This document shows positions 14,964 to 63,591 of a DNA stretch of 64,000 nucleotides, piece by piece (the first letter of the stretch is position 1; each line of letters starts with the position of its first letter). Source of the DNA: an uncultured Alphaproteobacteria bacterium (GTDB taxonomy: Bacteria; Pseudomonadota; Alphaproteobacteria; JAPOUT01; G958296285); assembly GCA_958296285.1 (NCBI GenBank), contig OY282459.1, positions 258,367 to 322,366 of the forward strand, in the 5' to 3' direction. The notes under the pieces were generated by a model. The model saw only the letters and a list, made by a program, of their open reading frames with translations, searched no databases and was not told the origin of the DNA. The position numbers and the translations under genes were made by a program.

Positions 14964-16612
14964 AATTGCATAGCAATCTTTCCCAAGCGCTCCGTCAAGA
15001 GCCTGTTTTCGCGATAGTCAATCGGAATGACGAGGAGCGACGGCCCTTGATGGGCGAGCGCGGCTTCCAAGGAGGGCAGCAGATCGCGCGAGCGGCTCAC
15101 ATAAGAGCCGCGCCAGCCGAAACTCTTCGCCAAATCCAGCCAGTCGGGATTGCCGAAGGAGAGATCGGTATGTTTTCCGAAATGCCCCTCCTGCTTCCAC
15201 GCGATGAGGCCATATTGCTTGTCCTCCCAAACCATGATCGTGATGTCGGCGTTCAAGCGCCTTGCCGTTTCCATCTCTTGGACGTTCATCAGAAAGTCGC
15301 CGTCTCCGGCGATTCCCAAGATTTTCCGATCCGGATGCACCATATGCGCCGCGATCGCGCCCGGCAGAGGCATCCCCATTGAGCAGAAGCCGTTTGGAAT
15401 GAGGCACGTATTGGGCTGGTGGCAGTGATAATAGCGCGCGATCCACATTTTATGCGCGCCCACGCCGGAGATCAGAATGTCGTCCATGTCCAGAGCCTGC
15501 CTCGCGTCATGGAGCGCTTTTTGCGGACGAATCGCGCCTTCGGTGTCGTCATCGGCATATTCGGCGAAGTCGGCGATCATGCGCTCTCGGATTTTCGCTT
15601 GGGCGGTCAGATCGTAAGAGGCTCGCTTTTCGCCGCGCATCGCCGCCATCAATTTTCTCAGAGAGAGCGCGATGTCGCCAATCAGTTCCGTCTGCGGATG
15701 GTAATGCTCGTCTATCTCGGCGGGCAGGAAGTCTATATGGAGGATTTCCTTGTCGGAATTCGGATTCCAAAGTTTCGGCGGATATTCCACAAGATCATAG
15801 CCGATCGCGAGAACCAAATCGGAATCGTCTATGGCGAGCGACGGTATGTCCTTCTGCCCCAGTCCGATCGTGAAGAGGCAATAGGGGGCGTCCTTATCCA
15901 CCGCGCCCTTCCCCATGAAGCTGGACATGACGCCGATGCCGGTCTCGGCGCATAGTTTGCGAAGTTCGCGCGAGGCGCGGCGGCGAATCGTTCCGTTGCC
16001 GGCGATGATGATCGGCGTCTTGGCTTCGGCGAGTTTTTGCGCCGCTTCTTGGATCGCGACGGCGTCCGGTTCGGGGCGGCGGAAGCGTCTGGGCGTCATT
16101 GGCGCGGCGTCCGTTTCCATTTTGGCGATGTCTTCCGGCAGTTCAATCAAGACCGCGCCCGGCTTCTCCGCCCGCGACAAGCGCACGGCTTTGCGGACAA
16201 TTTCGGGCAGCGTATGGGGATGAATGACTGAGACCGACCATTTCGTGACGGGACGATACATGGCGACCACATCCATGATTTGGTGGCTTTCTTTATGCTG
16301 CCGCGTTGTCGCGCCTTGTCCTGTGAGGACGAGGATTGGCGCTCTGTCCATATTGGCGTCCGCGACTCCGGTGATGAGGTTGGCGGCGCCGGGGCCGAGC
16401 GTGCCGAGGCATCCTGCCGGCGTTCCTGTGAGGCGTCCATAGACTTCCGCCATGAAGGCTGCGCCTTGTTCGTGGCGCGTCAGGATGAAGCGGATTTTTT
16501 TGGATGCTTCAAGCGACATGATGAAGTCGGCGTTTTCCTCGCCTGGGACGCCGAAAATATGGGTGATGCCTTCTTCTTCTAGGCATTGGACGAAGAGATC
16601 GGAGGCTTTCAT
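14960..16612 (-). CDS. thiamine-pyrophosphate-dependent enzyme, acetolactate-synthase-large-subunit-like
   Basis: N-terminal TPP-enzyme Pyr domain (GITHIFGVPGEENADF...GPGAANLITGVADANMDRAPILVLTGQ). C-terminal PP-binding GDGDFLMN motif. 550 aa. Confidence 0.85.
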   Translation of the reverse strand: MKASDLFVQCLEEEGITHIFGVPGEENADFIMSLEASKKIRFILTRHEQGAAFMAEVYGRLTGTPAGCLGTLGPGAANLITGVADANMDRAPILVLTGQGATTRQHKESHQIMDVVAMYRPVTKWSVSVIHPHTLPEIVRKAVRLSRAEKPGAVLIELPEDIAKMETDAAPMTPRRFRRPEPDAVAIQEAAQKLAEAKTPIIIAGNGTIRRRASRELRKLCAETGIGVMSSFMGKGAVDKDAPYCLFTIGLGQKDIPSLAIDDSDLVLAIGYDLVEYPPKLWNPNSDKEILHIDFLPAEIDEHYHPQTELIGDIALSLRKLMAAMRGEKRASYDLTAQAKIRERMIADFAEYADDDTEGAIRPQKALHDARQALDMDDILISGVGAHKMWIARYYHCHQPNTCLIPNGFCSMGMPLPGAIAAHMVHPDRKILGIAGDGDFLMNVQEMETARRLNADITIMVWEDKQYGLIAWKQEGHFGKHTDLSFGNPDWLDLAKSFGWRGSYVSRSRDLLPSLEAALAHQGPSLLVIPIDYRENRLLTERLGKIAMQL

Positions 16613-16719
16613 GGGGTTCTCCTTATTGAGGTTATCGTTTTGCGTTCCCTGACCCCATTGGGAGGATTATAGCGGGGATTTCTTTTGTTTGCTAGCGGGG
16701 GATTGGGGTCGCTGCCGCG

Positions 16720-17035
16720 CTCCCGTGAAGGGGGGTGTGGGGGGCGAAGCCCCCCGCGAAAAGGGGGTTCGGGGGAAACCCCCGAATAGTCGGCGGGCGT
16801 GGCGAAACGAAGCGCACGAAGCGCGTAGCGCAAGTGCGCGAGAAAGCCCGCCGACCCCCCTGCTTACAAGAGCTCTTGGCGTTCAGGGGGCGCGTGGGTG
16901 GGTCGCATTTGCTCGCTCACGCTTCGCTCCGCTCGCAAATGCTTTTTTCCCACCCACCCACGCGTTTCGGGGGGATTCCCCCCGACCCCCCCCTTCTTCG
17001 CGGGGGGCGTTCCGCCCCCCACACCCCCCTTCACT
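16720..17035. repeat. palindromic G6/C6-run repeat element, copy 1 (forward orientation)
   Basis: Left arm GTGAAGGGGGGTGTGGGGGGCGAAGCCCCCC..GGGGGAAACCCCC. Core TAGTCGGCGGGCGTGGCGAAACGAAGC...GAGCTCTTG...GCGCGTGGGTGGGTCGCATTTGC...GCAAATGCTTTTTTCCCACCCACCCACGCG. Right arm is the inverted complement of the left. Intergenic. Confidence 0.85.
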
Positions 17036-17051
17036 GGAGCGCCGCCCCCCT

Positions 17052-18650
17052 CTACGCAAAACCATGCTCCGTCTTATCCCAATAATGCGGATCACGGAAA
17101 AACTGCCAAAAAGCCCGAAACACCGCCACCGCCGACAAAATCCAATAAAACGGCATGGAAAAACTCTCGCGCCACAAAACACAACCCCGCGAGCCGCTCG
17201 CCAAAAGCGCCGCCCCTATCGCCGCCCCATAACCCAAAACCCCCGCCAACAAATTAAAGAAAAGCAAAGACCCCATCCATGACGCGCCAACATGAACCTC
17301 CAAAACCCACAAAAACGCCGTCAAAGGCCAAAAAAGACCATGCGCAAGAATGTTCACGACATAAACCGGAATCAAAAGATGCAGATAAAAACGCGCCGCC
17401 CATGAAACAGGCAAACCCCGGCGAGGCTGCCGCATGGCGGAAGCATAGCTCTGCATCCATCCTTTGATCCAACGCGAGCGCTGTCTTATCCATGAGCCGA
17501 GCGCGCCGTTCGCCTCCTCCCGCGTCTCCGATTCAAAACACGCCGCGCGAAAGCCATGACGCGCCAACCGCAAACCCAATTCGGCGTCTTCAGTCACATT
17601 GTAAGAATCCCAGCCATGCATCGCCCGCAGAGCCTCTATGCGGAAATGATTGGACGTCCCGCCCAACAAAATCGGCAAGCCCAGCGAAGAGGCGAAAGGC
17701 AGAAAAAAACGAAAATGCATCAGATATTCCAACGCGAACTGCCGCGTCAGCCATGTCGCGCCCCCATTGAAAAAAGAAAGATGCGCCTGAAGCGCCACAA
17801 CATCAGCAGGAAGATGACGGAAATGCGCCGCCGCTTTCCGCAACTGCCGCGGATCAGGAATGTCTTCGGCGTCATAGATCGTGATCAAATCGCCGCGCGC
17901 GAAAAGGAGACCATAATTGCAAGCCTTCGGCTTCGTCTGAACTTCATGAGACGGCACGATCAGAATATGAAAGCGCTTGTCCAGCGCCTCTCCTCGGACG
18001 GCTTGGATCGTCTCGGCATCCTCCTCTTCCAGCAGGAGTTTGATGTCCAGCTTATGGCGGGGATAGTCTATGCGCTTCAGCGCGCGAATGAGATTGGGCA
18101 GGACGCGAGTCTCGCGGAAGAGGGGAACGAGAATCGTATAGACAGGAAGCGCCTCGTCTTTAAGGGGCGGCGCCGGCGGCGCGAAGCCTCGCCGCCGCCT
18201 CTTCTCTCCGAAGACAGACCACAGAACGAGACCCTGCCGAAAGAGAATCCCCAAAAGACTCACCGTCCCAATGGCGAGGTTCAAAAAGATGAAAGATGTT
18301 TTCGGCGACAGAAGCGCTCCGACAAAGCAGCAGAGAAGAAGAATCATCGCGCCGCCGAAAATTTTCCTCACCGGCAGATGCGCCGCCGACGAGGGCGGGT
18401 CTTCTTCCGCCAAGCCCCGCACCGCCCGCGACAGCAGAGAGGCGCGGCAATGGCGCTCTATCGTCTGATAGAGCGAGGCGCGATCTATCGGAACGATTCT
18501 GCCATGTTGGACGCCCCGCTTTTTCATCTCGGCGGCGGCGAGAGACGGATCGCAAGCGGCGTAGTCCATTCTCTTCGGCGCGTCTTTGGCGCGCCCTATC
18601 GGCATGGCTTCGGCGGCGAGATAGAAGGAGAAATTTTCTGTCTCCAACAT
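17052..18650 (-). CDS. glycosyltransferase family 2 membrane protein (processive-synthase-like: N-terminal TM, GT2 domain, C-terminal multi-TM)
   Basis: GT-A DxD region (ITIYDAEDIPD) and QxxRW-like segment (RQRSRWIKGW), flanked by TM helices. 532 aa. Confidence 0.75.
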   Translation of the reverse strand: MLETENFSFYLAAEAMPIGRAKDAPKRMDYAACDPSLAAAEMKKRGVQHGRIVPIDRASLYQTIERHCRASLLSRAVRGLAEEDPPSSAAHLPVRKIFGGAMILLLCCFVGALLSPKTSFIFLNLAIGTVSLLGILFRQGLVLWSVFGEKRRRRGFAPPAPPLKDEALPVYTILVPLFRETRVLPNLIRALKRIDYPRHKLDIKLLLEEEDAETIQAVRGEALDKRFHILIVPSHEVQTKPKACNYGLLFARGDLITIYDAEDIPDPRQLRKAAAHFRHLPADVVALQAHLSFFNGGATWLTRQFALEYLMHFRFFLPFASSLGLPILLGGTSNHFRIEALRAMHGWDSYNVTEDAELGLRLARHGFRAACFESETREEANGALGSWIRQRSRWIKGWMQSYASAMRQPRRGLPVSWAARFYLHLLIPVYVVNILAHGLFWPLTAFLWVLEVHVGASWMGSLLFFNLLAGVLGYGAAIGAALLASGSRGCVLWRESFSMPFYWILSAVAVFRAFWQFFRDPHYWDKTEHGFA

Positions 18651-18734: not shown

Positions 18735-19607
18735 TTATCTTTTGGCGAAGAGGAGACGTGTCAGGAAGGGGAGTTGGAGGATCCAGAGGAGGCGGGTTGT
18801 GTCGGCGGGTTTGCAGGGCGGGAGTCCGAGCGTCAGCGTTTTTTGGGGTTTGTCGGTGTAGGTTCGGAAGATTCTGTCCCAGAGGGAGAGGATGAAGCCG
18901 AAATTTGTGTCGCGCTCGCCTTGGCGGATGGAGTGGTGCGTGCGGTGCATATCGGGCGTGACGAGGATGGCGCGGATGTATTTTTCGTAAGGCTTTTTGA
19001 TGGAGGCGTTGGCGTGGTTGAAGATCGCCATGCTGGAGAGCAGGATTTCAAAGATCATGACGCCGTAGGCGGCGGCGCCCAGCGCGTAGACGGCTGTGAT
19101 TTTGATTCCCATGCTGAGGAGGATTTCTATTGGGTGGAATCGCAGCGCGCTGGATGCGTCTATATCGGGGTCTGTGTGGTGGGCGGCGTGGATTCGCCAG
19201 AGCGCGGGGATTTTATGGAGGAGGGCGTGTTGGGCGTAGATGAGGAGGTCTAGGGCGAGGATTGTGATGAGGATGGAGAGGGCGTGGGGGAGTTTGGTTT
19301 GGTTGAGGAGTCCGATGGTGTTTTGTTGGGCGTGGATGGCGGTTTCTAGGGCGAGGATTGGGACGAGGAGTCGGAGGAGGATCATGTTGCAGAAGCCGAG
19401 TCCGAGGTTGACGGCGAGGCGTTTTTTGAGATTGAGGATGAGGGCTCTTGCTGGGGCGTGGTGTTCCCAGAGCATGATGATTGCGAGGGTTATGATGAAG
19501 ATGGCGCTTCGGATGATGGGTTCATATTCGGTCATGGGGCATTTTATATTTGTGAAAGCTCCAAAAGAAAGGGGGGTTTGGGGGGCTAGCCCCCCAAAAA
19601 AAACCAA
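18735..19607 (-). CDS. sterol desaturase / fatty-acid hydroxylase superfamily membrane protein
   Basis: His boxes HAAHHTD and HRTHHS with multiple TM helices. 290 aa. Confidence 0.8.
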   Translation of the reverse strand: MVFFGGLAPQTPLSFGAFTNIKCPMTEYEPIIRSAIFIITLAIIMLWEHHAPARALILNLKKRLAVNLGLGFCNMILLRLLVPILALETAIHAQQNTIGLLNQTKLPHALSILITILALDLLIYAQHALLHKIPALWRIHAAHHTDPDIDASSALRFHPIEILLSMGIKITAVYALGAAAYGVMIFEILLSSMAIFNHANASIKKPYEKYIRAILVTPDMHRTHHSIRQGERDTNFGFILSLWDRIFRTYTDKPQKTLTLGLPPCKPADTTRLLWILQLPFLTRLLFAKR

Positions 19608-19885
19608 GCGGGCGAAGCCCGCTATAGTCGGCGGGCGTGGCGAAACGAAGCGGGCGAAGCCGCAGGCAAGCCCGCGAGAAAGCCCGCCGACCCCCCTGCT
19701 TACAAGAGCTCTTGCGAGCAGGGGCGGTTGGGGGGTGGGTCGCTTTTCCTCGCTGCGCTACGCCACGAGTGGCTACGCTTGCTCGGAAAAGCTTTTTTCC
19801 CACCCCACCCCCCAACCGTTTCGGGGGGGATTCCCCCCGATCCCCCCTTCTTTCTTGGGGGGCAAGCCCCCCCAAACCCCCCTTA
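19566..19885. repeat. palindromic G6/C6-run repeat element, copy 2 (forward)
   Basis: Same family as copy 1, with the ACCAAGCGGGCGAAGCCCGCT module variant at the left. Intergenic between the desaturase and pyrD. Confidence 0.85.
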
Positions 19886-19923
19886 ACGAAAGCAGCCTAA
19901 TCTGCTAACCCTCCCAAGATAAA

Positions 19924-21123
19924 ATGAACCCTCTCCTCATACATTGCGGCTTCCGCCTCCTCTCGCCAGCGCTCTCGCGCATGAACCCCGAAACCGCCCA
20001 TAAACTCACAATCCAAATCCTAAAACGCCTCCCCCAAAAGACGCCCCAAAACCAAAACCCCTTGAGCCAAAAACTCCTCAATCTGACCTTCCCAAACCCT
20101 CTCGGCATCGCCGCAGGCTTTGACAAAAACGCCGAAACGCTCAACGGAATCTTCCAACTCAACTTCGGCTTCGCCGAAATCGGAACCATCACCCCTAAAC
20201 CCCAAATGGGCAACCCACGCCCCCGAATCTTCCGCCTCCCAAAACATCAAGCCGTCATCAACCGCATGGGCTTCCCCAATGACGGAATGGAAAAAATCCG
20301 CGAGCGCCTCGTCAAAACACAACCCCCCCAATCCATCATCGGCGTCAATATCGGCGCGAATGCCGAAAGCGCCAACATGGAAGACAAAATCGCCGACTAC
20401 GAAAAAACGCTCCACGCCTTCGCCAATCACGCATCCTATATCGCCGTCAATGTCTCCTCGCCCAACACCAAAGGACTGCGAAATCTCCAACGCCCCGACA
20501 ATCTCGCCAAACTCCTCAATCGCCTCAACGCGATACGCCAAAGCCGCGTCCCTCTCCTCCTCAAAATCTCCCCCGATCTGAGCGATCAAGAACTTCAAGA
20601 AATCGCCCGCCTCGCCCTAGAAAAAAAACTGGACGGCATCATCGCCACAAACACGACAATAAAACGCGAAGGACTCGTGGATGGAATCCACGCCGAAGAA
20701 ACGGGCGGACTTTCGGGAAAACCCCTCGCCTCCCTCGCCAATCAGACAATCCGAAAATTTTACCAAATGACCAACGGCGCGATTCCCATCATCGGAGTCG
20801 GCGGAATCGCCTCGGCGGAAGAGGCTTACGAAAAAATCCGCGCCGGCGCGTCTCTTCTCCAAATCTACACCGCGCTCGTCTATGATGGGCCTAGAATCGT
20901 CTCCGCCATCCTTGACGGGCTGGAGGCGCTTCTCAAAAAAGACGGCTATCGCCATATCAGCGAAGCCATCGGCGCGGATCATCGCCCAAAAGGAGAAAAA
21001 GAGAGACGCCGTCATGCAGCCCGCCATCTGCCACAACCCAATATGGCGAGAAAGCCGTCTTGGCGCGCCCGCCGGATCGCGCCCTTTCCATTCTCTCCGC
21101 ATCAGCTTAAAATATTAAAATAA
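19924..21123 (+). CDS. pyrD: dihydroorotate dehydrogenase (quinone), class 2
   Basis: Class-2 DHODH N-terminus (ETAHKLTIQILKRL) and FMN/substrate motifs (GFAEIGTITPKPQMGNPRPRIF..NRMGFPNDG..). Has a ~40-aa basic C-terminal extension beyond the usual end. Confidence 0.9.
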   Translation: MNPLLIHCGFRLLSPALSRMNPETAHKLTIQILKRLPQKTPQNQNPLSQKLLNLTFPNPLGIAAGFDKNAETLNGIFQLNFGFAEIGTITPKPQMGNPRPRIFRLPKHQAVINRMGFPNDGMEKIRERLVKTQPPQSIIGVNIGANAESANMEDKIADYEKTLHAFANHASYIAVNVSSPNTKGLRNLQRPDNLAKLLNRLNAIRQSRVPLLLKISPDLSDQELQEIARLALEKKLDGIIATNTTIKREGLVDGIHAEETGGLSGKPLASLANQTIRKFYQMTNGAIPIIGVGGIASAEEAYEKIRAGASLLQIYTALVYDGPRIVSAILDGLEALLKKDGYRHISEAIGADHRPKGEKERRRHAARHLPQPNMARKPSWRARRIAPFPFSPHQLKILK

Positions 21124-21150
21124 GCTCTGTCTAAAAAGGGGAGGCTCGCT

Positions 21151-22179
21151 ATGTCGTTTCAGAGATTGATGCTCAAATCCTTATTGAGTCTGCCTGATCC
21201 TCTTCTCATTCGGATGTCGGGCGGTCGGCCTCTTGAGATTGACGGACGGCGTTTGGATGCGAAAGCGCAGTTTCTCGCGGCGCAGGCGGCGAACGCGCCG
21301 GCTCTGCACAGTCTCACCCCTCTTGAGGCGCGTCAGGCGACAAGCCTCGCCTTCGCGCTTCTGAACGCGCCGCGCCCAAGCGGCGTGGAGACGCGGGACG
21401 ATAAGATTCCGGGGCCCGGCGGCGATCTTCCTGTCCGCCATTATCGTCCGAAGGGCGCGTCTGGCGCTCTTCCCGCCCTTGTTTATTTTCATATGGGCGG
21501 ATGGGTGATTGGCGATTTGGACAGTTCGGATTCTTTCTGCGCGCTTTTGGCGAAGCGCGGCGGGGCGCATGTGATGTCGGTGGATTATCGTCTCGCGCCC
21601 GAGCATAAATTTCCTGCCGCGATGGAAGATGGAATCGCCGCCTATAAATGGATCGCGCGGAACGCCGCTTCTCTGAAGGTTGACGGCGATCGCGTGGCGG
21701 TTGGCGGCGATTCGGCGGGCGGCGGCATCAGCGCGGTCATTTGTCATGAGGCGAAGAGTCGCGGATATCGGCAGCCCAAGGCGCAGATGTTGATTTATCC
21801 TGCTGTGGATTTGGCGGCTGTCGGCGGCTCTATGGAGAGTTGCAGAGATTGTTATCCTCTGACGAGGGATTTGATGCTTTGGTTTGGCGGGCATTTTTTA
21901 GAGCGGGAGGAGAGTCGCGTGGATGTGATGGCGTCGCCGTTGCGCCGCGAGGATTTTAGCGAGTTGGCGCCGGCGCTTCTCATCACGGCGGGGTTTGATG
22001 TTTTGCGTTCGCAGGGTGAGGCTTATGCGGAGAAGATGCGGGAGGCGGGTGTTTCGGTTCGGTATCGTTGTTATGATTCTCTTGTTCATGGTTTCACGGC
22101 GCAGGCGGGGGTAGTGTCTGCGGCTGAGGCGGCGTGTGAAGGGATTGCGCGGGATTTTGGGAAGATTCTTTCTGAGTAG
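21151..22179 (+). CDS. alpha/beta hydrolase (esterase/lipase, HSL-like)
   Basis: HGGG-type oxyanion motif (HMGGWVIGD) and nucleophile elbow GDSAGGG. Confidence 0.8.
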   Translation: MSFQRLMLKSLLSLPDPLLIRMSGGRPLEIDGRRLDAKAQFLAAQAANAPALHSLTPLEARQATSLAFALLNAPRPSGVETRDDKIPGPGGDLPVRHYRPKGASGALPALVYFHMGGWVIGDLDSSDSFCALLAKRGGAHVMSVDYRLAPEHKFPAAMEDGIAAYKWIARNAASLKVDGDRVAVGGDSAGGGISAVICHEAKSRGYRQPKAQMLIYPAVDLAAVGGSMESCRDCYPLTRDLMLWFGGHFLEREESRVDVMASPLRREDFSELAPALLITAGFDVLRSQGEAYAEKMREAGVSVRYRCYDSLVHGFTAQAGVVSAAEAACEGIARDFGKILSE

Positions 22180-22189
22180 GAGTTTTGCG

Positions 22190-22595
22190 GAAAAGGGGGG
22201 GCGGCGAGCCGCCGCGGGCATCTTTTTCATAGACAGGCATTTTGGATTTGCCCCAGGGGAACTAGTGCATAGAAGCTGAAGGTGAAGGGGGGTCAAGGGG
22301 GGCTTGCCCCCCTTGAGAAAAGGAGGCTCGGGGGAAACCCCCGAATAGTCGGCGGGCGTGGCGAAACGAAGCGAGCGCTAGCGAGCGAGAAAGCCCGCCG
22401 ACCCCCCTGCATCGCGTGAGCTCTTGCGAGCGGGGGGCGCGTGGGTGGGTCGCATTTGCTCGCTCACGCTTCGCTCCGCTCGCAAATGCTTTTTTCCCAC
22501 CCACCCACGCGTTTCGGGGGGGATTCCCCCCCGACCCCCCCCCCTTCTTCGCGGGGGGCTTCGCCCCCCACACCCCCCGTCAGGGAGCTCCCCTG
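22190..22595. repeat. palindromic repeat element, copy 3 (forward; extended variant with ~90-bp 5' module)
   Basis: Core as copy 1. The extra left module GGCGGCGAGCCGCCGCGGGCATCTTTTTCATAGACAGGCATTTTGGATTTGCCCCAGGGGAACTAGTGCATAGAAGCTGAAGG is also present (inverted) at the right end of copy 7. Confidence 0.85.
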
Positions 22596-22622
22596 TTTTT
22601 TGGAGATCCTCTATAATAAACC

Positions 22623-23369
22623 ATGACCCTCGCCCAAATCTTCCAAACAGCCCGAGACTGGATCCTCCCCCCTCATTGCCTCATCTGCGACACAACCATC
22701 CTCACCAACGGATGCCTCTGCGCGCCATGCTGGAAATCTATCCGCTTCATTGACAAACCCCGATGCCCCATCACAGGCGTCCCCTTCGCCCACCCCTGGC
22801 CCGCCCATATGCAAAGCGCCCAAAGCCGCCTCGTCAAACCGCCCTACGATTACGCCCGCGCCGCCATGCTCTACGGATCCGAAAAAAGCCGAATCCTCAT
22901 CGCCCAAATGAAATTCCGCGACCACCCCGAAATCGCCATCCCCGCCGCCCAATGGATCGCGCGCGCCAGCCGCGACATCCTCAACAAAGCCGACCTGCTC
23001 GCCCCCGTCCCCCTCCACCGCCGCCGACTCTTCCAAAGACGCTTCAACCAATCCGCCGAAATCGCCCGCGCTCTTTCCCAAATCAGCCAAATCCCGCATC
23101 TCCCCGACCTCCTGATCCGCGCCCGCCACACCCAGCAGCAGACGGGGCTGAAGCGCCGCGATAGAGAACGCAATGTCGCGCGCGCTTTCATTATCAATCC
23201 CCATCACAAGAAGCGCGTCAAAGGGCGGAGCGTTCTTATCATTGACGATGTGATGACGTCGGGCGCGACAAGCGGCGAATGCGCTCAGACTTTGCGCCGC
23301 GCCGGCGCGGGCGCGATTGGGGTTTTGACTGTGGCGCGGGTTGTTCATCCCCATGAGACGCATCCTTGA
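22623..23369 (+). CDS. comF: ComF-family phosphoribosyltransferase-domain protein
   Basis: N-terminal double Cys pairs (CLICDT...CAPCW). C-terminal PRTase motif VLIIDDVMTSGAT. Confidence 0.8.
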   Translation: MTLAQIFQTARDWILPPHCLICDTTILTNGCLCAPCWKSIRFIDKPRCPITGVPFAHPWPAHMQSAQSRLVKPPYDYARAAMLYGSEKSRILIAQMKFRDHPEIAIPAAQWIARASRDILNKADLLAPVPLHRRRLFQRRFNQSAEIARALSQISQIPHLPDLLIRARHTQQQTGLKRRDRERNVARAFIINPHHKKRVKGRSVLIIDDVMTSGATSGECAQTLRRAGAGAIGVLTVARVVHPHETHP

Positions 23370-23370
23370 G

Positions 23371-23705
23371 CGCATAGAAGCTGAAGGTTAAGGGGGGTTT
23401 GGGGGGCTAGCCCCCCAAAAAAAAACCAAGCGGGCGCAAGCCCGCTATAGTCGGCGGGCGTGGCGAAACGAAGCGGGCGAAGCCGCAGGCAAGCCCGCGA
23501 GAAAGCCCGCCGACCCCCCTTGCAACGCGAGAGCTCTTGGCGTTCAGGGGGCGCGTGGGTGGGTCGCATTTGCTCGTTTCGCGTTGCTTCACTCGCAAAT
23601 GCTTTTTTCCCACCCACCCACGCGCTTTCGGGGGGATTCCCCCCGACCCCCCCCTTTTCTCAAGGGGGGCAAGCCCCCCTTGACCCCCCGTCAGGGAGCT
23701 CCCCT
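23371..23705. repeat. palindromic repeat element, copy 4 (forward)
   Basis: Same family. Starts with GCATAGAAGCTGAAGGTTAAGGGGGG as copy 3. Confidence 0.85.
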
Positions 23706-24485
23706 GTCTTTTGGAGCTTCAAAAAGCCCCTTCCGCGCCGCCATCATATAATTCACATCCATATCCCCAGTCAGACGAAAAAAAGAAAAAAAAGGCACAT
23801 ACATAACACCCGTCTCATCACTCGCCTCCAACCCCCCGCCACGAAAAGCGCGGCGAAGCTCGTCAGGCGTGATGAAACCCTCATAACGATGCGTGCCGCG
23901 AGGAAGCCAGCCCAAAACATACTCCAAGCCAAGAATCGCGAAAAGAAAAGATTTCGGCGTCCTGTTAATCGTCGCCGCGATAAGAAGCCCCGAAGGCGAA
24001 AGCATCGCGCCAAGACGCTTGACCGTCCCCGCCACGTCCGGAAGATGCTCCAAAATCTCCATGATCAAAATCACGTCATAAGAACGCGCCGCCGACCCCT
24101 TCCCCTTCGCCGCCCTCTCCCGATAAAGCGTCTCGTCCGTGCCGACTCGGTAATCTATCTTTAAGCCCTGAGAAACAGCATGGGCTTTGGCGATCTCTAT
24201 CGTCTCTGAACTCGCGTCCAAAGCGGTGACCCTAGCGCCCATCCGCGCCAACGGCTCGCTCAAAAGACCGCCGCCGCAGCCCATATCCAAAAAACGAAGC
24301 GAAGCGAAAGACTGCCCGCGCCCTCCCAAGCCAAAATGCGCCGCGACAAGCCTCTCAATATAAGAAAGGCGAAGCGGATTAAGCCGATGGAGCATCGCGA
24401 AAGGCCCCTCCCTGTCCCACCATCTCTGGGCAAGAGCGGAGAAATGCGCGATCTCTTCTTCTTCTCTGGCGGTCGGCGGATTCAT
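23691..24485 (-). CDS. ubiG: bifunctional 3-demethylubiquinol 3-O-methyltransferase / 2-polyprenyl-6-hydroxyphenol methylase
   Basis: Class I SAM-MTase motif LDMGCGGGLLSEPLARMGARVTALDAS and UbiG-like flanking sequence. The start is most likely MNPPTA (24485). Divergent from lysC as in many alphaproteobacteria. Confidence 0.8.
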   Translation of the reverse strand: MNPPTAREEEEIAHFSALAQRWWDREGPFAMLHRLNPLRLSYIERLVAAHFGLGGRGQSFASLRFLDMGCGGGLLSEPLARMGARVTALDASSETIEIAKAHAVSQGLKIDYRVGTDETLYRERAAKGKGSAARSYDVILIMEILEHLPDVAGTVKRLGAMLSPSGLLIAATINRTPKSFLFAILGLEYVLGWLPRGTHRYEGFITPDELRRAFRGGGLEASDETGVMYVPFFSFFRLTGDMDVNYMMAARKGLFEAPKDRGAP

Positions 24486-24568
24486 GATTCTTGAACCAAG
24501 TCTATCGCGCCGCGCCCCCTTTGAGAAGAGCTCTGCGCCGCCGCCCGTCTGATGATACACTCCGCGCC

Positions 24569-29300: not shown

Positions 29301-29307
29301 CGTGGAG

Positions 29308-30381: not shown

Positions 30382-30384
30382 CAT

Positions 30385-30695: not shown

Positions 30696-30724
30696 CGGAG
30701 CCAAGAAACCGATACACTGCCCAA

Positions 30725-43774: not shown

Positions 43775-43791
43775 CGTTTGGACGAGGGCGG

Positions 43792-48857: not shown

Positions 48858-48912
48858 TTTTTATTTTTGATTTTTGATTTTTGTTTTTTGGGCGCGGATT
48901 TTATTTTTTATT

Positions 48913-51693: not shown

Positions 51694-51760
51694 CTCAGTT
51701 GGTTAGAGCAGCGGAATCATAATCCGCGTGTCGGGGGTTCGAGTCCCTCCTCCGCTACCA
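51684..51760 (+). tRNA. tRNA-Met (anticodon CAU; elongator Met or tRNA-Ile2(k2C) not distinguishable by eye)
   Basis: GGCGGAGTAGCTCAGTTGGTTAGAGCAGCGGAATCATAATCCGCGTGTCGGGGGTTCGAGTCCCTCCTCCGCTACCA. Anticodon loop ATCATAA. CCA encoded. Confidence 0.85.
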
Positions 51761-51778
51761 GAACGCAATGGAGGCAGC

Positions 51779-56543: not shown

Positions 56544-57467
56544 TTATCGCGCCCTATGCACCAAAACTTCCTCTTCCCGATTCGGCAAGCCGCGCGCGCT
56601 CTTGACGAATCCTTTCGGCACGCGGACAGTAAGAGGGCTTCCGGCGACAGAGAGGCAAAGATTGGTGTTGTTGTCCTCATCCCGCCTGTCGCCGATGGCG
56701 CTAGGCGCGGCGTCAAAGGGGCCATCGGACGACCCCGCCGCCGCCCCTGCCGCCGCCGCTCCTGCCTCCGCCGCCGCCGCGCTGTCGCCGCGCATATTGA
56801 CGAAGGTCGCGCTCCAATCTTGCGGATCGGAGACGGCGCGCGACCAAGTGAGGCGGAGCGCCGCTTTCGCCGCGCTTGGACAGTCGCTGCCGCCGCTCTC
56901 GCGCTCGGCGGGCGCGATCAGTTCGGCATAGACCAGAGACGGCGCTTCGTCCAACAGCGCCACGCCGTCATAGGACAAGCCGCGCATGTCGTAGATCACA
57001 TTGTCCAGATTGGGTTCGGTCGTCAGCGAGCCGACCACGCGCGCTTTGAGCGGCGGATCAAAGACGGCGCTGCCGAAATCGCCTAAGAGGAAGATTGTGC
57101 GATCTTCATTTTCCTCGTCTGACGGGCTGGTTGTCAGGCAGAAGGGCGTTTTTTTGACGCCTGAGCGAGTCGTGATGGCGAAGTCTTCGGGATCCAGGCT
57201 GGATTCCTCTATTTCGTGGGTGAAGACGAGGGCGATTCTGTCCATGCGTCCGGCTTTGGCGCAGAGGAGTCGCGTCCAGAGATTGGACCAGGGGACGGGC
57301 TTGTCGTCCATCTCGTGGGCGGCGGAGAGAAGACGCGGACGCGCCCGCTCCACGGCTTCGGCGCTTGGCGGCAAGGCTGTCCAAAGAAGCGCCAGGGCCG
57401 CGAGCGCCAGGGCGGCGAGCGCGAGGAGGGCGGGGAGGTTTTTTTTTCGGGCGGCGGTTGGTTTCAT
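56544..57467 (-). CDS. hypothetical secreted protein
   Basis: Signal peptide (LPALLALAALALAALALLWTALP). No recognisable motif. Last gene of the msrA operon (4-nt overlaps). Confidence 0.45.
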   Translation of the reverse strand: MKPTAARKKNLPALLALAALALAALALLWTALPPSAEAVERARPRLLSAAHEMDDKPVPWSNLWTRLLCAKAGRMDRIALVFTHEIEESSLDPEDFAITTRSGVKKTPFCLTTSPSDEENEDRTIFLLGDFGSAVFDPPLKARVVGSLTTEPNLDNVIYDMRGLSYDGVALLDEAPSLVYAELIAPAERESGGSDCPSAAKAALRLTWSRAVSDPQDWSATFVNMRGDSAAAAEAGAAAAGAAAGSSDGPFDAAPSAIGDRRDEDNNTNLCLSVAGSPLTVRVPKGFVKSARGLPNREEEVLVHRAR

Positions 57468-57712
57468 GTGTCGTCTTTTCGCACGAAGGTGACGGCGTAG
57501 TGGATTCGTCCTTCTAGGAGGGGTTTGGGTTCGCCGAGTCCGTCGGTCAGGAAGAATTTGCGCGGCGTCACGCGCCCTTCGAGGCGGTAGCCGCGCTCGT
57601 GCATTTTGCGGCGATGGAATTCCATCGCGGCGGGCGTGAAATCGGTCGAGAGGACTGTGATTCTTTCGGGGAGCGCGGTTTGGCTTTTGTCGTTTTTGGT
57701 TTTGTCGTTCAT
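57464..57712 (-). CDS. small hypothetical protein (82 aa)
   Basis: ATGA-type overlaps with both neighbours indicate translational coupling inside the msrA operon. No recognisable motif. Confidence 0.4.
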   Translation of the reverse strand: MNDKTKNDKSQTALPERITVLSTDFTPAAMEFHRRKMHERGYRLEGRVTPRKFFLTDGLGEPKPLLEGRIHYAVTFVRKDDT

Positions 57713-58203
57713 GGCGCTTCTCTCGCGCGGAAGAGGCGGGCTGTGTGTTTTTCTTCGTAATGTTGGTGGTAGTCTTCGGCGCGCCAGAATTGGGTTTTTG
57801 GTTGGATTTCTGTCGCGATGGGTTTTTGGAGGCGTCCGGAGTTTTGGAGCGCCGTCAGGGATTCGCGCGCCAGTTTATTTTGTTCTTCGGAGTGGGTGAA
57901 GATGGCGCTTCTATATTGGGTTCCGATGTTGGGGCCTTGTTTATTTTTTTGGGTTGGGTCGTGGCATGTCCAGAAAGTTTGGAGGAGGGTTTGGTAGGAG
58001 ATGGTTTGGGGGTCAAAGATGATGTGGATGGTTTCGGCGTGGCCTGTTTGTCCTGTGCAGACTTGTTCGTAGGAGGGGTTTGGGGTTGTTCCGCCTGTGT
58101 ATCCGACTTCGGTTTTGAGGATGCCTGGGATTTTGGCGAAGATGCTTTGGACTTGCCAGAAGCATCCTGCGGCGAAGCTGGCGTGTTGGGTTTGGTTGGT
58201 CAT
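57709..58203 (-). CDS. msrA: peptide-methionine (S)-S-oxide reductase MsrA
   Basis: Active-site GCFWQ (FAAGCFWQVQSIF) and downstream GYTGG..YEQVCTGQTGHAE. The start is taken at MTNQTQ (58203); the upstream ORF part is repeat sequence. Confidence 0.85.
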   Translation of the reverse strand: MTNQTQHASFAAGCFWQVQSIFAKIPGILKTEVGYTGGTTPNPSYEQVCTGQTGHAETIHIIFDPQTISYQTLLQTFWTCHDPTQKNKQGPNIGTQYRSAIFTHSEEQNKLARESLTALQNSGRLQKPIATEIQPKTQFWRAEDYHQHYEEKHTARLFRAREAP

Positions 58204-58213
58204 GGGGGGATTA

Positions 58214-58552
58214 TAGCATAGAAGTTTTGGTTTGGTTTGCTCCCGTGAAGGGGGGTCAAGGGGGGCTTGCCCCCCTTGAAAAAAGGGGGGATCGGGGGGA
58301 ATCCCCCCCGAAAGCGCGTGGGTGGGGTGGGGAAAAAGCATTTGCGAAGCGAGGTGAGCCGAGCGAGCAAATGCGACCCCACCCACGCGCCCCCTGCTCG
58401 CAAGATCTCTTGGAGGGGGGTCGGCGGGCTTTCTCGCGGGCTTGCCTACGGCTTCGCCCGCTTCGTTTCGCCACGCCCGCCGACCTTTCGGGGGTTTCCC
58501 CCGAACCCCCTTTTTTCTTGGGGGGCTAGCCCCCCAAACCCCCCTTCTTTTG
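58214..58552. repeat. palindromic repeat element, copy 8 (reverse)
   Basis: Same family. Begins with a truncated GCATAGAAG module. Intergenic msrA/ACAD. Confidence 0.85.
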
Positions 58553-58559
58553 GAGCAAC

Positions 58560-59699
58560 CTAAAAGCCCCCCAACCGCGCATAACGCGCACGATGAAACC
58601 GACCATCGCCATACAACTGAGCCTGAACCCGCGCCCGCTTCATGAATAAACCCATATCCAACTCATCCGTCATCCCCATCCCGCCATGCAACTGAACCGC
58701 CTCATTCGTAATATGACGCAAAGCCTCCGACATCCGAGCCTTCGCCAAACTCGCCATCTGCGCCACATCATCACGCCCCTCCTCCAACGCCGACAACCCA
58801 TCCCAAACAACCGAATGACCCAACTCAATCTGACAAAACATCTCCGCCGCCCGATGCTTCAAAGCCTGAAAAGACCCAATCGGCTGATCAAACTGCCGGC
58901 GCTCCTTCATATGCGCCAAAATCCTCTCAAAAAGCTCGCGCGCCGCGCCCAGCATCTCAGAAGCAAGCGCGATCCGCGAAACATCCAAAACACGCGACAA
59001 AATCTCGCCGCCCCGATCCAACTCGCCCAAAACCGAATCCTCGCCCAGCGCCACATCCTCCAACTGAATGTCCGCCATGCCGCGACTGTCCGCCATGGAA
59101 AGAGAAACACGCTCAACCCCCCTCGCGTCTGACGGAAAAAGAAAAAGCGTGATGCCCCGCTTGTCGTCTTTCTCGCCGCTCGTCCTCGCCGAAACAATGA
59201 GCCAATCCGCCGCGCCGCCGTCCGGCGCGAAGCGCTTGCGCCCCCGAAGCGTGAAGCCGCCCCGCCCCCTCCTCGCCTCGCATGAAACCGCATAAGGCGC
59301 ATGACGCGCGCCCTCGTCAAAAGCGGGGGCGAAAATTCTCTCGCCGGCGGCGATCTTCGGCAAATGCGCCTTCTTCTGCGCCTCGCTGCCAGCATGATTG
59401 ACGGCTTCCGCCGAAACGCAAGAGGTCGCGAAAAGAGGGGAGGGCGAAAGCCTCCGCCCCGCCTCCTCAAAAACCAACCCCATGCCCAGCGCGCCAAAGC
59501 CGGTGCCGCCATAATCTTCCGGAATCATCATGCCGGCGAAGCCGAGCTCCGCCATTTTCTTCCACAGATTCCCGTCAAAAGCCTCGCCCTCCCCCGCGTC
59601 CCGAAGAGCGCGCAAATGAGAGACAGGCATATGGTCTTGGAAAAACTGCGCCGCCGTTTCCCGCAGCAGCCCATGCTCCTCGCTCAATAGGAACGCCAT
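58560..59699 (-). CDS. acyl-CoA dehydrogenase family protein
   Basis: ACAD three-domain layout. Conserved ..GGMGMTDE.. C-terminal region and catalytic-base neighbourhood. Confidence 0.85.
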   Translation of the reverse strand: MAFLLSEEHGLLRETAAQFFQDHMPVSHLRALRDAGEGEAFDGNLWKKMAELGFAGMMIPEDYGGTGFGALGMGLVFEEAGRRLSPSPLFATSCVSAEAVNHAGSEAQKKAHLPKIAAGERIFAPAFDEGARHAPYAVSCEARRGRGGFTLRGRKRFAPDGGAADWLIVSARTSGEKDDKRGITLFLFPSDARGVERVSLSMADSRGMADIQLEDVALGEDSVLGELDRGGEILSRVLDVSRIALASEMLGAARELFERILAHMKERRQFDQPIGSFQALKHRAAEMFCQIELGHSVVWDGLSALEEGRDDVAQMASLAKARMSEALRHITNEAVQLHGGMGMTDELDMGLFMKRARVQAQLYGDGRFHRARYARLGGF

Positions 59700-59700
59700 G

Positions 59701-60902: not shown

Positions 60903-62048
60903 TTATTCGGCGGCGGCGAGGGCGTCCATAGAGAGATAGCGGTCTGACCCGCCATTGACGCCGATAAGATATTTGATGCCTTCTTCGGCGATCTCATCGC
61001 CGATCATCCGATCGCCTTCGCCGTAGAGTTCTTCCACATCCACGTAAGCCGCGTAGTTGGCGGAGGTGCGCTTCGTGATGATTCCGGCTTTGACGAGGGT
61101 CTTGACCAGCACGCGGAAGATGTTGGTGGCGTCCTGCATATCCTCGCGGATTTTGGCGTCCGTCATCGCTTCCATGAAGGCGTCCTGCACCCACTGCCAT
61201 TCCAATCCGAGCGGCTCATAGATGTGTTTTTTCTGCTCGGGGCTTGCCAGATTGTAGAGCAGGATGTGGAAGACTTCCCACGCCCAGTCTTCTATTTTGT
61301 CGCGCTCTTCCGGCGAGATATGGGGGATTGTGCGCTCCGCCCATATTTTGCCGAATTTATGGTGGAAGGCTTCATCGGTCATGACGAGCTGGCAGAGTTT
61401 GACCATGACCGGATCGTATCCGAATTTGTAGAAGGTTGCGAAGGCGCCCATGGCGAGTCCTTCCACCATCATTTGCATGCCGACCAGTTTTTTCCAGACG
61501 AGGGGCGAGGAGACCACATCTTGGAGGAGTCCGCCGAGCGCGTCTCCGATTTTCACAGGCTTGTCCCATCGTCTTTGGACATATTGCGAGAAGGCGGTGA
61601 CGTGTCTTGCTTCTTCGCGGGTTTGGTTGGCGGCGTATTCCTGCGCGCCTGGGTCTTTGAGGATGTGGCAGAGCGAGGCGGAGAGCGAGAGCGCGCCTTG
61701 CTCGCCGTGCAGGATGGAGGAGAAAGACCATCGGGCGTTATTATTGACGAGTTGGATTTTTTGGTCTTCGTTGAGTTTGTCGGCGACGGCGGTTTTCAGT
61801 TCGCCGCTGATTTCGGGGTCTACCAGATAGCCTTTTTTGAGGTCAAAGTCTGGCGAGAAGTCTATGTATTTTTTGTCCAGCGGGTCCCAGAAGTGGTCGT
61901 GGGTTGCGGCGATGATTTTGTCAAAGGCTGAGGATCGTTTGGCGTAGCGATCCACTTCAATCATGGCGGCGAAGTTATCGGGGGCGACGGCTTCGTAGGC
62001 GGCGTCGGCGTTGATTTGGTTTTGGGCGTTTGGGGTTTGGCGTGTCAT
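60903..62048 (-). CDS. ferritin-like diiron-carboxylate protein (AurF/diiron-oxygenase-like)
   Basis: Two ExxH motifs in helical context (EEARHVTAF and DEAFHHKFG) plus upstream Glu residues. 381 aa. Embedded between acyl-CoA dehydrogenase genes. Confidence 0.55.
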   Translation of the reverse strand: MTRQTPNAQNQINADAAYEAVAPDNFAAMIEVDRYAKRSSAFDKIIAATHDHFWDPLDKKYIDFSPDFDLKKGYLVDPEISGELKTAVADKLNEDQKIQLVNNNARWSFSSILHGEQGALSLSASLCHILKDPGAQEYAANQTREEARHVTAFSQYVQRRWDKPVKIGDALGGLLQDVVSSPLVWKKLVGMQMMVEGLAMGAFATFYKFGYDPVMVKLCQLVMTDEAFHHKFGKIWAERTIPHISPEERDKIEDWAWEVFHILLYNLASPEQKKHIYEPLGLEWQWVQDAFMEAMTDAKIREDMQDATNIFRVLVKTLVKAGIITKRTSANYAAYVDVEELYGEGDRMIGDEIAEEGIKYLIGVNGGSDRYLSMDALAAAE

Positions 62049-62127
62049 GGCGGGTCTCTTGGGGTTTGCGGCTTTTGGGATGGGGGGATTTTGGGGGAAT
62101 GGGGGTTAGGAGTCAAGACGCGCTCCA

Positions 62128-62432
62128 AAAAAGGGGGGTCAAGGGGGGCTTGCCCCCCTTGAGAAAGGGGGTTCGGGGGAAACCCCCGAATAGTCGGCGG
62201 GCGTGGCGAAACGAAGCGGGCGAAGCGCGACAGCGCAAGCCCGCGAGAAAGCCCGCCGACCCCCCTCCAAGAGCTCTTCTAGCAGGGGGCGCGTGGGTGG
62301 GTCGCATTTGCTCGCTTCGCGTTGCTTCGCTCGCAAATGCTTTTTTCCCACCCACCCACGCGCTTTCGGGGGGGATTCCCCCCCGATCCCCCTCTTTTTT
62401 TGGGGGGCTAGCCCCCCAAACCCCCCTTTACG
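62128..62432. repeat. palindromic repeat element, copy 9 (forward)
   Basis: Same family. Intergenic diiron gene/ACAD. Confidence 0.85.
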
Positions 62433-62439
62433 GGAGCCG

Positions 62440-63591
62440 CTAATCCCCCCCGCGCCCCAAAAGAGAATCCGAAACAATCCGCAGCATAATCTCCGACGAC
62501 CCCTCAAAAATCTTCGTCAACCGAGAATCCCGCCAATAACGCTCCACACTATGCAAAGTCGTATAACCCGCGCCCCCCAAAATCTGCAACGCCTCAGACG
62601 AAACCCGCTCCGCCATCTCAGACGCCACATATTTCGCCCGCGCCGCCATCACCGCCATATCACCGCCCCCATCCATCGCCGCGCAAGTCTCATAAAGAAG
62701 CGCCCGCGCCGCGGCAACCTCGCTGGACATCTTCGCAAGCTTAAACCGTATCGCCTGAAAAGACCCAATAGGCCTCCCAAACTGCTCGCGCGCCTGCGCA
62801 TACGCCAACGCATCCTCCAACGCGCCCCGCGCCAAGCCAATCGCGCGCGCCGCCGTATGCGCCCGCATGACGGCAAAATCCTCCGCCAAACTATAAAAAG
62901 CGCGACCCTCCTCGCCAGCATTCTCATAAGAGGTTCGCGCCCCGTCAAAACGAAGCTCCCACGTCTTCCAGCCAAAATAGCCGATCTTCGGAATAGGCTC
63001 GCCAGTCAAGCCCTCAGGAAACCCGCCCCTCTCCTTCTCCAGCGAAATCCCCGTCAGCCCCAAATGACGCCGCCCCGCCTCGCCCGCGCCAGTCCGCGCG
63101 ATGACATAAATAAAGTCGGCGCGATCAGCGAAAGTGCACCAATATTTGTTTCCAGTGATGACCCACTCCGCGCCCTCGCGCTTGGCGCGGCACTCTATGC
63201 CCGCCACATCCGATCCCGCCTGAGGCTCGGAGATGGCGTAAGCGCCCAGATATTCCCCGCGCGCCATGGCTTTGACGCGCTCTTCGCGCCGCGCCTTGTC
63301 TCCGGGGACGCGCTTATAAAAACCGTTTCCCCGCGCCAGCAAACTGCCCACGCTCATCCAGCCGCGCGACAACGCCTCGGCGACAAGACAATATTCATAA
63401 ACGCCCAGCCCCATCCCGCCCATCTCTTTCGGGATAAGAATGCCGAAAAAGCCAAGCGCCCCCATCTTCTCAATGAGAGAGTCGGGAATGTCGCCTTTTT
63501 CCGAATCCAGCCTGTCGGCGAGAGGCAGAACCTCGCGGCGCGTGAAATCCTCCGCCGTTTCCTGAATGAGACGGCGCTCTTCGGTCATCAT
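62440..63591 (-). CDS. acyl-CoA dehydrogenase family protein
   Basis: ACAD domains (..YAISEPQAGSDVAGIECRAKREGAEWVITGNKYW..). 4-nt overlap with the upstream MaoC gene. Confidence 0.85.
   Translation of the reverse strand: MMTEERRLIQETAEDFTRREVLPLADRLDSEKGDIPDSLIEKMGALGFFGILIPKEMGGMGLGVYEYCLVAEALSRGWMSVGSLLARGNGFYKRVPGDKARREERVKAMARGEYLGAYAISEPQAGSDVAGIECRAKREGAEWVITGNKYWCTFADRADFIYVIARTGAGEAGRRHLGLTGISLEKERGGFPEGLTGEPIPKIGYFGWKTWELRFDGARTSYENAGEEGRAFYSLAEDFAVMRAHTAARAIGLARGALEDALAYAQAREQFGRPIGSFQAIRFKLAKMSSEVAAARALLYETCAAMDGGGDMAVMAARAKYVASEMAERVSSEALQILGGAGYTTLHSVERYWRDSRLTKIFEGSSEIMLRIVSDSLLGRGGD

Follow-up and report, generated by a model that had tools for sequence, protein, structure and literature searches.

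The window analysed here is a 64-kb stretch of DNA (60% G+C) from an uncultured alphaproteobacterium that encodes, among others, ClpB, PrfA, PrmC, PyrD and RluD. It contains nine copies of a repeat element of ~295-330 bp, all of them intergenic and numbered c1-c9 from left to right (Table 1). At these elements the composition of the + strand changes abruptly, being rich in G+T on the left and in C+A on the right. Copies c1-c4 and c9 are in the forward and c5-c8 in the reverse orientation, as assigned in an earlier note on this DNA, and the pattern is independent of element orientation, as that note also stated. The observation is real, statistically overwhelming and biologically unusual.

The asymmetry was quantified as the keto skew, (G+T-A-C)/N, of the + strand, and a flip statistic was computed for each position as the skew of the left 500 bp minus that of the right 500 bp. 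Over 28,188 window positions lying more than 2.5 kb from any element, which served as the background, this statistic has a standard deviation of 0.115 and a maximum of 0.348. Eight of the nine elements score 0.58-0.92, and all peaks above 0.35 in the window are elements. The low score of c4 (0.07) is due to c3, which lies only 800 bp upstream and masks it; the flip reported in the earlier note for all nine repeats is upheld. In successive bins out to 800 bp, the mean skew is +0.35, +0.32, +0.32, +0.29, +0.29 and +0.25 to the left of the elements and -0.29, -0.41, -0.39, -0.38, -0.27 and -0.25 in the corresponding bins to the right, and it is back to the background level (~0) by 1-1.5 kb. The predicted sign is found in 17 of 17 assessable flanks. 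Amplitudes over 1 kb, after correction for a background of -0.05, are ~+0.33 on the left and ~-0.26 on the right.

The flanks had been described as almost only G and T, which is accurate for third codon positions (~88% G+T within 250 bp) and too strong for all sites taken together (65-80%). Left blocks of 0.3-1.2 kb had also been proposed for every copy, an extent that does not apply to c4, whose left block spans only 100-250 bp. The long block claimed to the right of c6, up to position 37700, is borne out by the third-position skew, which is still -0.25 to -0.43 at 1.5-2.6 kb from the element, across ubiA.

Table 1. Elements c1-c9 and their flanks, in window coordinates. Extended positions include the extended terminal inverted repeats (GCTCCCGTGAAGGGGGG... 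at c1) and, where given, the extension module. Skews refer to the + strand. G2 is a related genome described in the text.
Feature	Position	Extended position	Orientation	Genes and remarks	Keto skew
c1 left flank	15700-16714			G+T-rich; weakest flank	+0.17 over 600 bp
c1	16730-17029	16715-17045	forward (+)		
c1 right flank	17046-18050			C+A-rich	-0.36 over 600 bp
c2 left flank	18735-19555				+0.33 over 600 bp
c2	19571-19882	19556-19898	forward (+)	one breakpoint of the pyrD-esterase inversion in G2	
c2 right flank	19899-20900			5' part of pyrD	-0.37 over 600 bp
c3 left flank	21400-22199			3' part of esterase gene	+0.31 over 600 bp
c3	22287-22578	22200-22594, with ~90-nt extension module at 22200-22286	forward (+)	other breakpoint of the pyrD-esterase inversion	
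c3-c4 interval	22595-23376			comF	third positions, -0.66/-0.81 to +0.37 within the gene
c4	23392-23689	23377-23705	forward (+)		
c4 right flank	23706-24700			3' part of ubiG	-0.24 over 600 bp
c5 left flank	29150-30379			prfA	+0.27 over 600 bp; still +0.22 at 1-1.25 kb
c5	30396-30690	30380-30706	reverse (-)	between prfA and prmC	
c5 right flank	30707-31950			prmC	-0.43 over 600 bp
c6 left flank	33900-34896			3' end of clpB	+0.39 over 600 bp
c6	34913-35210	34897-35226	reverse (-)	between the convergent clpB and M23 peptidase genes	
c6 right flank	35227-37800			M23 peptidase gene, ubiA	-0.32 over 600 bp
c7 left flank	40145-41328			5' part of rluD; strongest flank	+0.55 over 600 bp
c7	41345-41637	41329-41730, with extension module at 41638-41724	reverse (-)	between rluD and tRNA-Glu	
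c7 right flank	41731-43200			intact tRNA-Glu, TonB-dependent receptor gene	-0.32 over 600 bp
c8 left flank	57050-58233			msrA	+0.44 over 600 bp
c8	58250-58544	58234-58560	reverse (-)		
c8 right flank	58561-59700			acyl-CoA dehydrogenase gene	-0.37 over 600 bp
c9 left flank	60903-62116				+0.31 over 600 bp
c9	62133-62426	62117-62442	forward (+)		
c9 right flank	62443-63590			acyl-CoA dehydrogenase gene	-0.33 over 600 bp

To treat both sides of the elements alike, each site was re-expressed as the base on the toward strand, that is, the strand running 5'->3' toward the nearest element. Within 250 bp of an element the toward-strand skew is 0.76 at third, 0.27 at first and 0.13 at second codon positions. 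At fourfold-degenerate sites it decreases monotonically with growing distance (0.78, 0.59, 0.47, 0.31, 0.23 and 0.11), and within 250 bp it amounts to 0.83 for genes encoded on the opposite strand and 0.73 for genes encoded on the toward strand. Far from the elements the toward strand carries A.07, C.43, G.42 and T.08 at these sites, and next to them A.02, C.09, G.59 and T.29. The skew, which peaks at synonymous sites, is mutational, and the third-codon and fourfold check supports mutation bias rather than selection on proteins. The open reading frames (ORFs) in the skewed zones stay open, and the tRNA-Glu gene within such a zone is intact; together with the dependence on codon position, this shows that we are dealing with real substitutions that were filtered by selection.

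The direction of the neighbouring genes has no bearing on the pattern. The third-position skew is 0.77 for genes transcribed toward an element and 0.74 for genes transcribed away from it, in agreement with the earlier note, and divergent, tandem and convergent gene pairs are all present beside elements. A replicon-wide switch between leading and lagging strands is likewise not the cause, as nine flips occur in 47 kb and each decays within ~1 kb.

Comparison with a distant relative indicates that the skew is derived. In this outgroup, a syntenic genome represented by contigs L081 and L084 whose RluD is 51-55% identical, the gene order is the same, no element is found at the rluD/tRNA or the M23/clpB junction, and no flip exceeds 0.35. 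Within 400 bp of the elements, differences from the outgroup on the toward strand are strongly one-sided (C->T 78 vs T->C 19, A->G 97 vs 23, C->G 121 vs 26), whereas at 1.5-4 kb they are more balanced (165 vs 153, 170 vs 80 and 216 vs 156, respectively); because synonymous sites are saturated at this distance, these counts give a direction only and no mutation spectrum. The re-coding of essential proteins that had been read from the sequence was confirmed as a derived state for RluD and ClpB. Against 119 homologues, RluD is shifted over its first ~150 residues to K/Q/T/P/N-type (A/C-rich) codons, with differences of -0.6 to -1.4 in the codon-composition score. ClpB resembles its 80 homologues along 760 residues, and only the last ~110, beside c6, are shifted toward G/T-rich, G/V/L/W-type codons (+0.44 to +0.62).

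MsrA had been placed among the proteins with G/V-rich stretches, and this assignment was wrong. The msrA gene is encoded by the - strand and has c8 at its 5' end, which puts the protein in the T/Q/N/K-rich class, and the G/V-rich frame is its antisense. Since a stop codon requires both T and A, long spurious ORFs occur on either strand of the skewed zones; these frames may mislead gene callers and readers. Examples are the 158-residue G/V/F-rich frame at 57745-58221 (+), antisense to msrA, and a frame of 442 residues antisense to prfA.

Two close relatives, G2 and G3, were reached via protein-cluster members; both come from other samples and are independent assemblies, with flanks 97.5-98% identical to the window. 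G2 is a contig of 1,723,605 bp, of which 78.4 kb were assembled contiguously from L088, L083, L085 and L089 (record positions 164,876-243,237), and G3, a contig of 79 kb, is represented by the pieces L086 and L087. When the genome collection was scanned with ClpB, the best alphaproteobacterial matches were only 56-60% identical, and the collection holds no close species. G2 and G3 carry the same elements with the same skew, and the agreement of three independent assemblies rules out an artefact. The pattern recurs at copies elsewhere, as had been proposed for examination. Three further G2 copies outside the window flip by 0.78, 0.81 and 0.41, the last being cut by the locus edge, and in metE, located between two G2 elements, the third-position skew runs from -0.78 to +0.88. 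The 10 kb to the left of the window, as seen in the G2 locus, contains no element and no flip.

A truncated G2 copy, of which only the right half is present (L088, ~780-925), abuts AT-rich foreign DNA near a Schlafen/AlbA_2 gene. Its native side is skewed (-0.34 to -0.43) and its foreign side is not (+0.05, -0.08 and +0.07), as a slow, cumulative process predicts. Judged from these sequence comparisons, the skew is derived and tied to the presence of the element.

The asymmetry is also visible in recent substitutions. Single-strain differences were polarised by majority among the three strains (window, G2 and G3) over 27.8 kb of aligned sequence; the strains recombine and the counts are small. 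Within 1 kb of the elements, the rate of C>T per C on the toward strand is 2.1 times that of G>A per G (p=0.0017). This ratio is 2.75 (p=4e-4) when the counts are restricted to the two better assemblies, the window and G2 lineages, and 3.0 (41 vs 14 per 1000, p=0.001) at third positions; beyond 1.5 kb it is 1.3-1.9. The rate of T>C drops close to the elements. From the ratios of the transition rates the observed C/T composition can be roughly predicted, a sign that it is near equilibrium. The C>T asymmetry is ongoing but moderate. C is depleted in every 5'-neighbour context (odds ratios 0.15-0.32), which fits a motif-free reaction and disfavours a motif-specific deaminase.

The element itself is highly structured. 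Terminal inverted repeats of the form GCTCCCGTGAA-GGGGGG-TTT-GGGGGGCTAGCCCCCC-AAA, together with the reverse complement, are present at nine of nine copies, with a hairpin in each end; the arms are ~45 nt long and ~250 nt apart. The interior is asymmetric and contains an invariant core of 70 nt (GTCGGCGGGCGTGGCGAAACGAAGC ... GCGAGAAAGCCCGCCGACCCCCCT) and several nested hairpins, in which pairing is kept by compensatory changes in 11 pairs. The consensus fold has an energy of -147 kcal/mol, and c9 folded as single-stranded DNA reaches -115.8 kcal/mol (z = -9.0 vs shuffles). The inward-pointing strand at each end bears four G-runs, as read from the sequence, which may form a quadruplex or triplex; the G-quadruplex link offered in the earlier note is speculative. 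On both strands, terminator-like hairpins followed by T-runs are located near the far ends. Immediately outside the repeats there is no consistent target-site duplication (GCCGC on both sides of c1, none at c5, c8 and c9), although mutation of the flanks could have erased such duplications.

The element has relatives only within its own lineage, according to searches of Rfam, species-representative genomes, metagenome and viral contigs, and plasmids. An invariant 25-mer of the core has no match in 185,579 species-representative genomes, and viral contigs and plasmids gave no match to the element. A 21-mer had one chance match in metagenome contigs, L082, a eukaryote-like coding sequence without the element. 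In a scan of the window with Rfam 15, only three tRNAs reach the gathering threshold and no family matches the element. The sub-threshold matches are generic hairpins, the best on an element being a plant hairpin derived from a miniature inverted-repeat transposable element (MITE), with 38 bits vs a cut-off of 168 bits.

The distribution of the copies has some further features. A separate module of ~90 nt (…GGCATTTTGGATTTGCC.CAGGGGAACTAG.GCATAGAAGCTGAAGGT…) accompanies two elements of the window (Table 1) and is found at 20517-20602 of L083; it adjoins different element copies in different strains. G2 holds 12 copies within 78 kb, all clustered in the first 52 kb, with none in the next 26 kb. 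The genes split by c5, prfA and prmC, are usually adjacent, and for several genes adjoining elements the promoter must lie within an element or on its far side.

Structural comparison of the strains reveals rearrangements that coincide with the elements. The interior of c7 is inverted in G2 relative to identical flanks, and the 90-nt module is absent there and adjoins the c5 orthologue instead. In G3, c5 has another variant as its interior, which is oppositely oriented, with flanks identical up to the outer hairpins. The 2.5-kb segment with pyrD and the esterase gene between c2 and c3 is inverted in G2 (window 19848-22321 vs L085 9924-12398), and this inversion leaves the skew pattern unchanged. 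Divergence inside the elements is 16.6% vs 1.2-1.9% in the flanks, about tenfold higher. No presence/absence polymorphism exists among the nine loci shared by the three strains; all loci are occupied, and the activity is therefore exchange between copies rather than new insertion. By strain comparison, the elements are recombination hot spots.

On both sides, the affected strand is the one whose 3' end faces the element. Recurrent single-strand exposure, one of the readings offered in the earlier note, is the one that best fits this polarity. The same polarity is expected from (a) 5'->3' resection from a two-ended break in the element, (b) 5'->3' degradation or nick translation starting from nicks at the 3' ends of the element, or (c) blocked polymerases. 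We favour (a) resection or (b) nick-directed removal, and regard (c), a polymerase block, as the main rival. A break or nick at the element, followed by 5'->3' strand removal into both flanks, is in our judgement somewhat better than an even bet. The element would be a long-resident, hairpin-rich, MITE-like repeat with terminal inverted repeats, at which the DNA is recurrently broken or nicked. One strand would be removed 5'->3' from the element into both flanks over a length constant of ~0.9 kb, with a reach to ~2.5 kb, and the strand with its 3' end at the element would remain single-stranded, or serve as the only template, until repair took place. The lesion would be a two-ended break or paired nicks, and the chemistry presumably deamination of single-stranded DNA. 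The exposed strand would lose C and, over the long run, A, and these changes would be fixed when the removed strand is resynthesised. With long repetition under purifying selection, neutral sites near the element would reach a G+T-rich equilibrium on the exposed strand, and first and second codon positions, hence protein composition, would be dragged part of the way. Single-stranded DNA deaminates ~100-fold faster than duplex DNA, and a 2.5-fold rise in rate would need the strand to be single-stranded only ~1% of the time. The inversions and the replacement of copies are as expected from break-induced recombination through inverted ends.

Several findings weigh against strand removal from a lesion at the element. 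A scan of 20 window ORFs against Pfam revealed no transposase, nuclease or deaminase gene. Total divergence near the elements is not raised, with 2.0-2.2% vs 2.25% for all sites and 3.6% vs 3.9% for third positions; the asymmetry is therefore moderate rather than a gross hypermutation, and a long residence of the elements would be needed. The comparison of A>G with T>C gives no significant asymmetry in recent substitutions (1.5-fold, p=0.5), though the composition implies one. The deamination-like signature of A->G plus C->T put forward in the earlier note holds for the composition, which loses C and A, and for the recent C>T excess, and it is not significant for recent A>G. As the recent substitution fluxes do not add to the skew, the pattern may be partly a relict. 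The polarisation itself draws on three strains that recombine, and the G3 assembly probably contains indel errors. Finally, the geometry of polymerase stalling can be expected to give the same polarity as resection.

In this strongest competing account, polymerases stall at the hairpin, G-run or triplex-prone structures of the element, and the template past the block, which is always the toward strand, remains single-stranded until synthesis is reprimed or the gap is repaired, so that no break is needed. The element is extremely structured as a single strand, as its folding energies attest, and the ~1-kb scale matches what is generally known of bacterial Okazaki-fragment and repriming distances. 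With replication arriving from one direction, the lagging-template side should dominate, but left and right are equal within ~25% at all nine copies, which lie in one replichore-like stretch. Stalling alone also leaves the interior replacement, the interior inversion and the segment inversion unexplained, though template switching could contribute. We consider stalling improbable, with perhaps a minority chance of being correct.

Nick translation or mismatch repair could instead be led into the flanks by strand-specific nicks at the element ends, such as transposase-type cuts at the 3' ends. The strand with the nick would be recopied again and again from the other strand, damage in the template being fixed and damage in the nicked strand erased, without any long-lived single-stranded DNA. 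The anatomy of the element suggests that the polarity is right, as cuts at its 3' ends would place the 5' ends of the flanks on precisely those strands that seem to be replaced, and such recopying explains how C>T is redistributed between strands with no rise in total divergence. However, no transposase is known for the element, and the lack of presence/absence polymorphism at the nine shared loci makes transposition seem rare. Furthermore, the C>T rate of the away strand close to elements, 14 per 1000, shows no clear drop from the average of about 16 far away. Such nick-directed recopying strikes us as rather unlikely.

If transcription converged on the element, perhaps with R-loops that the G-runs stabilise, the non-template strand would be exposed on both sides. 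The sign of the skew fits transcription directed toward the element, and the terminator-like hairpins and T-runs near the far ends on both strands are in line with it, but the third-position skew is alike for genes read in either direction and all three gene arrangements adjoin elements. In half of the flanks, antisense transcription would have to dominate over that of the resident gene, and we regard this explanation as very improbable.

Even less credit is given to the idea that every element acts as a genuine replication terminus or fork trap, replication being initiated in the intervals between them, or that a replicon-wide skew was cut up by inversions or misassembly at the repeats. By the usual skew convention, the jump from G+T-rich on the left to C+A-rich on the right has the sign of a bacterial terminus, and the earlier suggestion of a miniature terminus is correct in this respect; it fails in that the skew decays to zero within 1-1.5 kb at any element spacing, from 0.8 to 16.6 kb, leaving the intervals unfilled. 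The alternative suggestion of a miniature origin has the wrong sign at all nine copies, as an origin would run from C+A-rich on the left to G+T-rich on the right. A fourfold-site skew of 0.8 also far exceeds replication skews, inversions cannot create a pattern that persists when a segment between elements is flipped, and misassembly is contradicted by the three assemblies. Selection on proteins or codons, insertion into already skewed sites and sequencing artefact have nothing specific in their favour beyond the change of protein composition near elements, and are practically dismissed by a skew that is greatest at fourfold and least at second positions, by unskewed orthologous sites in the outgroup, by intact ORFs and a conserved tRNA with dependence on codon position, and by the reproduction in independent assemblies.

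Three other candidates were considered. Outward transcription exposing the non-template strand was rejected by its sign, as was rolling-circle or strand-displacement synthesis proceeding outward from a nick. Homogenisation of the flanks by gene conversion was rejected because the flanks are unique genes.

The closest analogue of the pattern is the strand-asymmetric mutagenesis around human meiotic break hotspots. Within 2 kb of these hotspots, the forward strand carries C>N and A>N mutations to the left of the break and the complementary changes to its right, an asymmetry that the authors ascribe to single-stranded DNA exposed by 1-2 kb of resection (PMC7615360). In yeast and cancer genomes, strand-coordinated clusters of mutations are known in which the affected strand changes at a break (PMC6786661). 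The likeness extends to the polarity, the scale of 1-2 kb, the loss of C and A on the strand that ends 3' at the centre and the presence of recombination at that centre. In the eukaryotic cases the asymmetry is seen in de novo mutations or clusters, whereas here it is seen in the equilibrium base composition around a dispersed bacterial repeat that has been in place long enough to reshape codon usage and proteins, and the break at the element is presumed. The asymmetry is of a known kind, in a new setting and at a new scale.

Replication skews, both those of bacterial leading and lagging strands and that of the vertebrate mitochondrial heavy strand, are similar in forming a gradient with exposure, and presumably share the chemistry, a faster deamination of C, and of A, on the strand exposed longer as a single strand. 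They differ in having one origin and one terminus per replicon and in covering whole replichores, whereas nine flips of terminus sign are packed into 47 kb here, with a neutral-site amplitude (0.8) that is far larger.

Leach and colleagues have reportedly found that, in E. coli, SbcCD cuts an engineered near-perfect palindrome of 246 bp once it has been replicated, with recombinational repair from the sister chromosome; both sides of the break are said to be resected and RecA to be loaded on the 3'-ended strands. We know of no evolutionary footprint of this palindrome. Both it and the present element are structured inverted repeats, but the arms of the latter are ~45 nt long and ~250 nt apart, and any cleavage would be hypothetical.

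As a repeat, the element resembles MITEs and REPINs, including Correia elements, RPEs and the REP/REPIN-RAYT system (PMC3116915, PMC3337134), in being small, non-coding, multi-copy and intergenic, with terminal inverted repeats, strong hairpins and sequence exchange between copies. Compared with REP and REPIN sequences it is about three times longer, lacks the REP-type GTAG motif and has an asymmetric invariant core. With MITEs it shares terminal inverted repeats and dispersed small non-coding copies but not a clear target-site duplication. Neither a parent insertion sequence nor recent transposition was detected, as the 20 window ORFs scanned against Pfam include no transposase and the loci are occupied in all three strains. 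In full-text literature searches, no flanking compositional strand asymmetry was found for any bacterial repeat family, and skew and repeats are treated only as misassembly diagnostics in PMC7111523.

More tentatively, and with less confidence than we place in strand removal as such, the elements may be sites where DNA breaks are self-inflicted or induced by structure, equivalent in bacteria to recombination hotspots and maintained by break-induced copying between copies, and the skew may be a fossil record of the polarity and tract length of end resection. This would be the first dispersed bacterial repeat to impose a local, bidirectional, strand-specific mutation bias on its neighbours, a bias strong enough to alter essential proteins such as ClpB, RluD, PrmC and PyrD. 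It would offer a readout, from sequence only, of the polarity and length of strand removal, by which resection and gap repair in uncultured bacteria become testable from genomes. It would also reveal a hidden cost, in that non-coding repeats can put a mutational load on adjacent genes. For skew-based tools the pattern is a warning that local flips are not always origins, termini or misassemblies. If this proposal is true and the density seen in G2 is genome-wide, a dispersed selfish repeat would mould codon choice and amino-acid usage in a considerable part of the proteins of a bacterium with a genome of 1.7 Mb.

The outgroup differs from the window lineage in gene content. In L081, rsmE (6062-6871) is located between the glutamate-cysteine ligase gene and ubiA, and an ORF of 53 residues (2516-2677) lies between tRNA-Glu and rluD; both are missing from the window lineage (window 36756-39162 and 41195-41776, respectively). 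The outgroup genome is small, about 1.73 Mb on one contig.

Differences among the three strains are patchy, with examples at 26300-26800, 42800-43800 and 48800-49300 of the window and 35 G2-specific differences in one 500-bp stretch of ptsP, which indicates a mosaic of recombination tracts. In L087 of G3, the gene calls for clpB, an MMPL transporter and rluD are split or antisense (15141-17805, 3699-6387 and 8910-9842); these calls probably reflect assembly indel errors, and private substitutions of G3 are to be treated with care. The window also contains an island of low G+C content (51684-55400, 41-47% G+C) that adjoins a tRNA gene (51684-51757) and is absent from G2. It encodes an AIPR protein of the abortive-infection type with 744 residues (53166-55400, -), and constitutes a strain-specific defence island.

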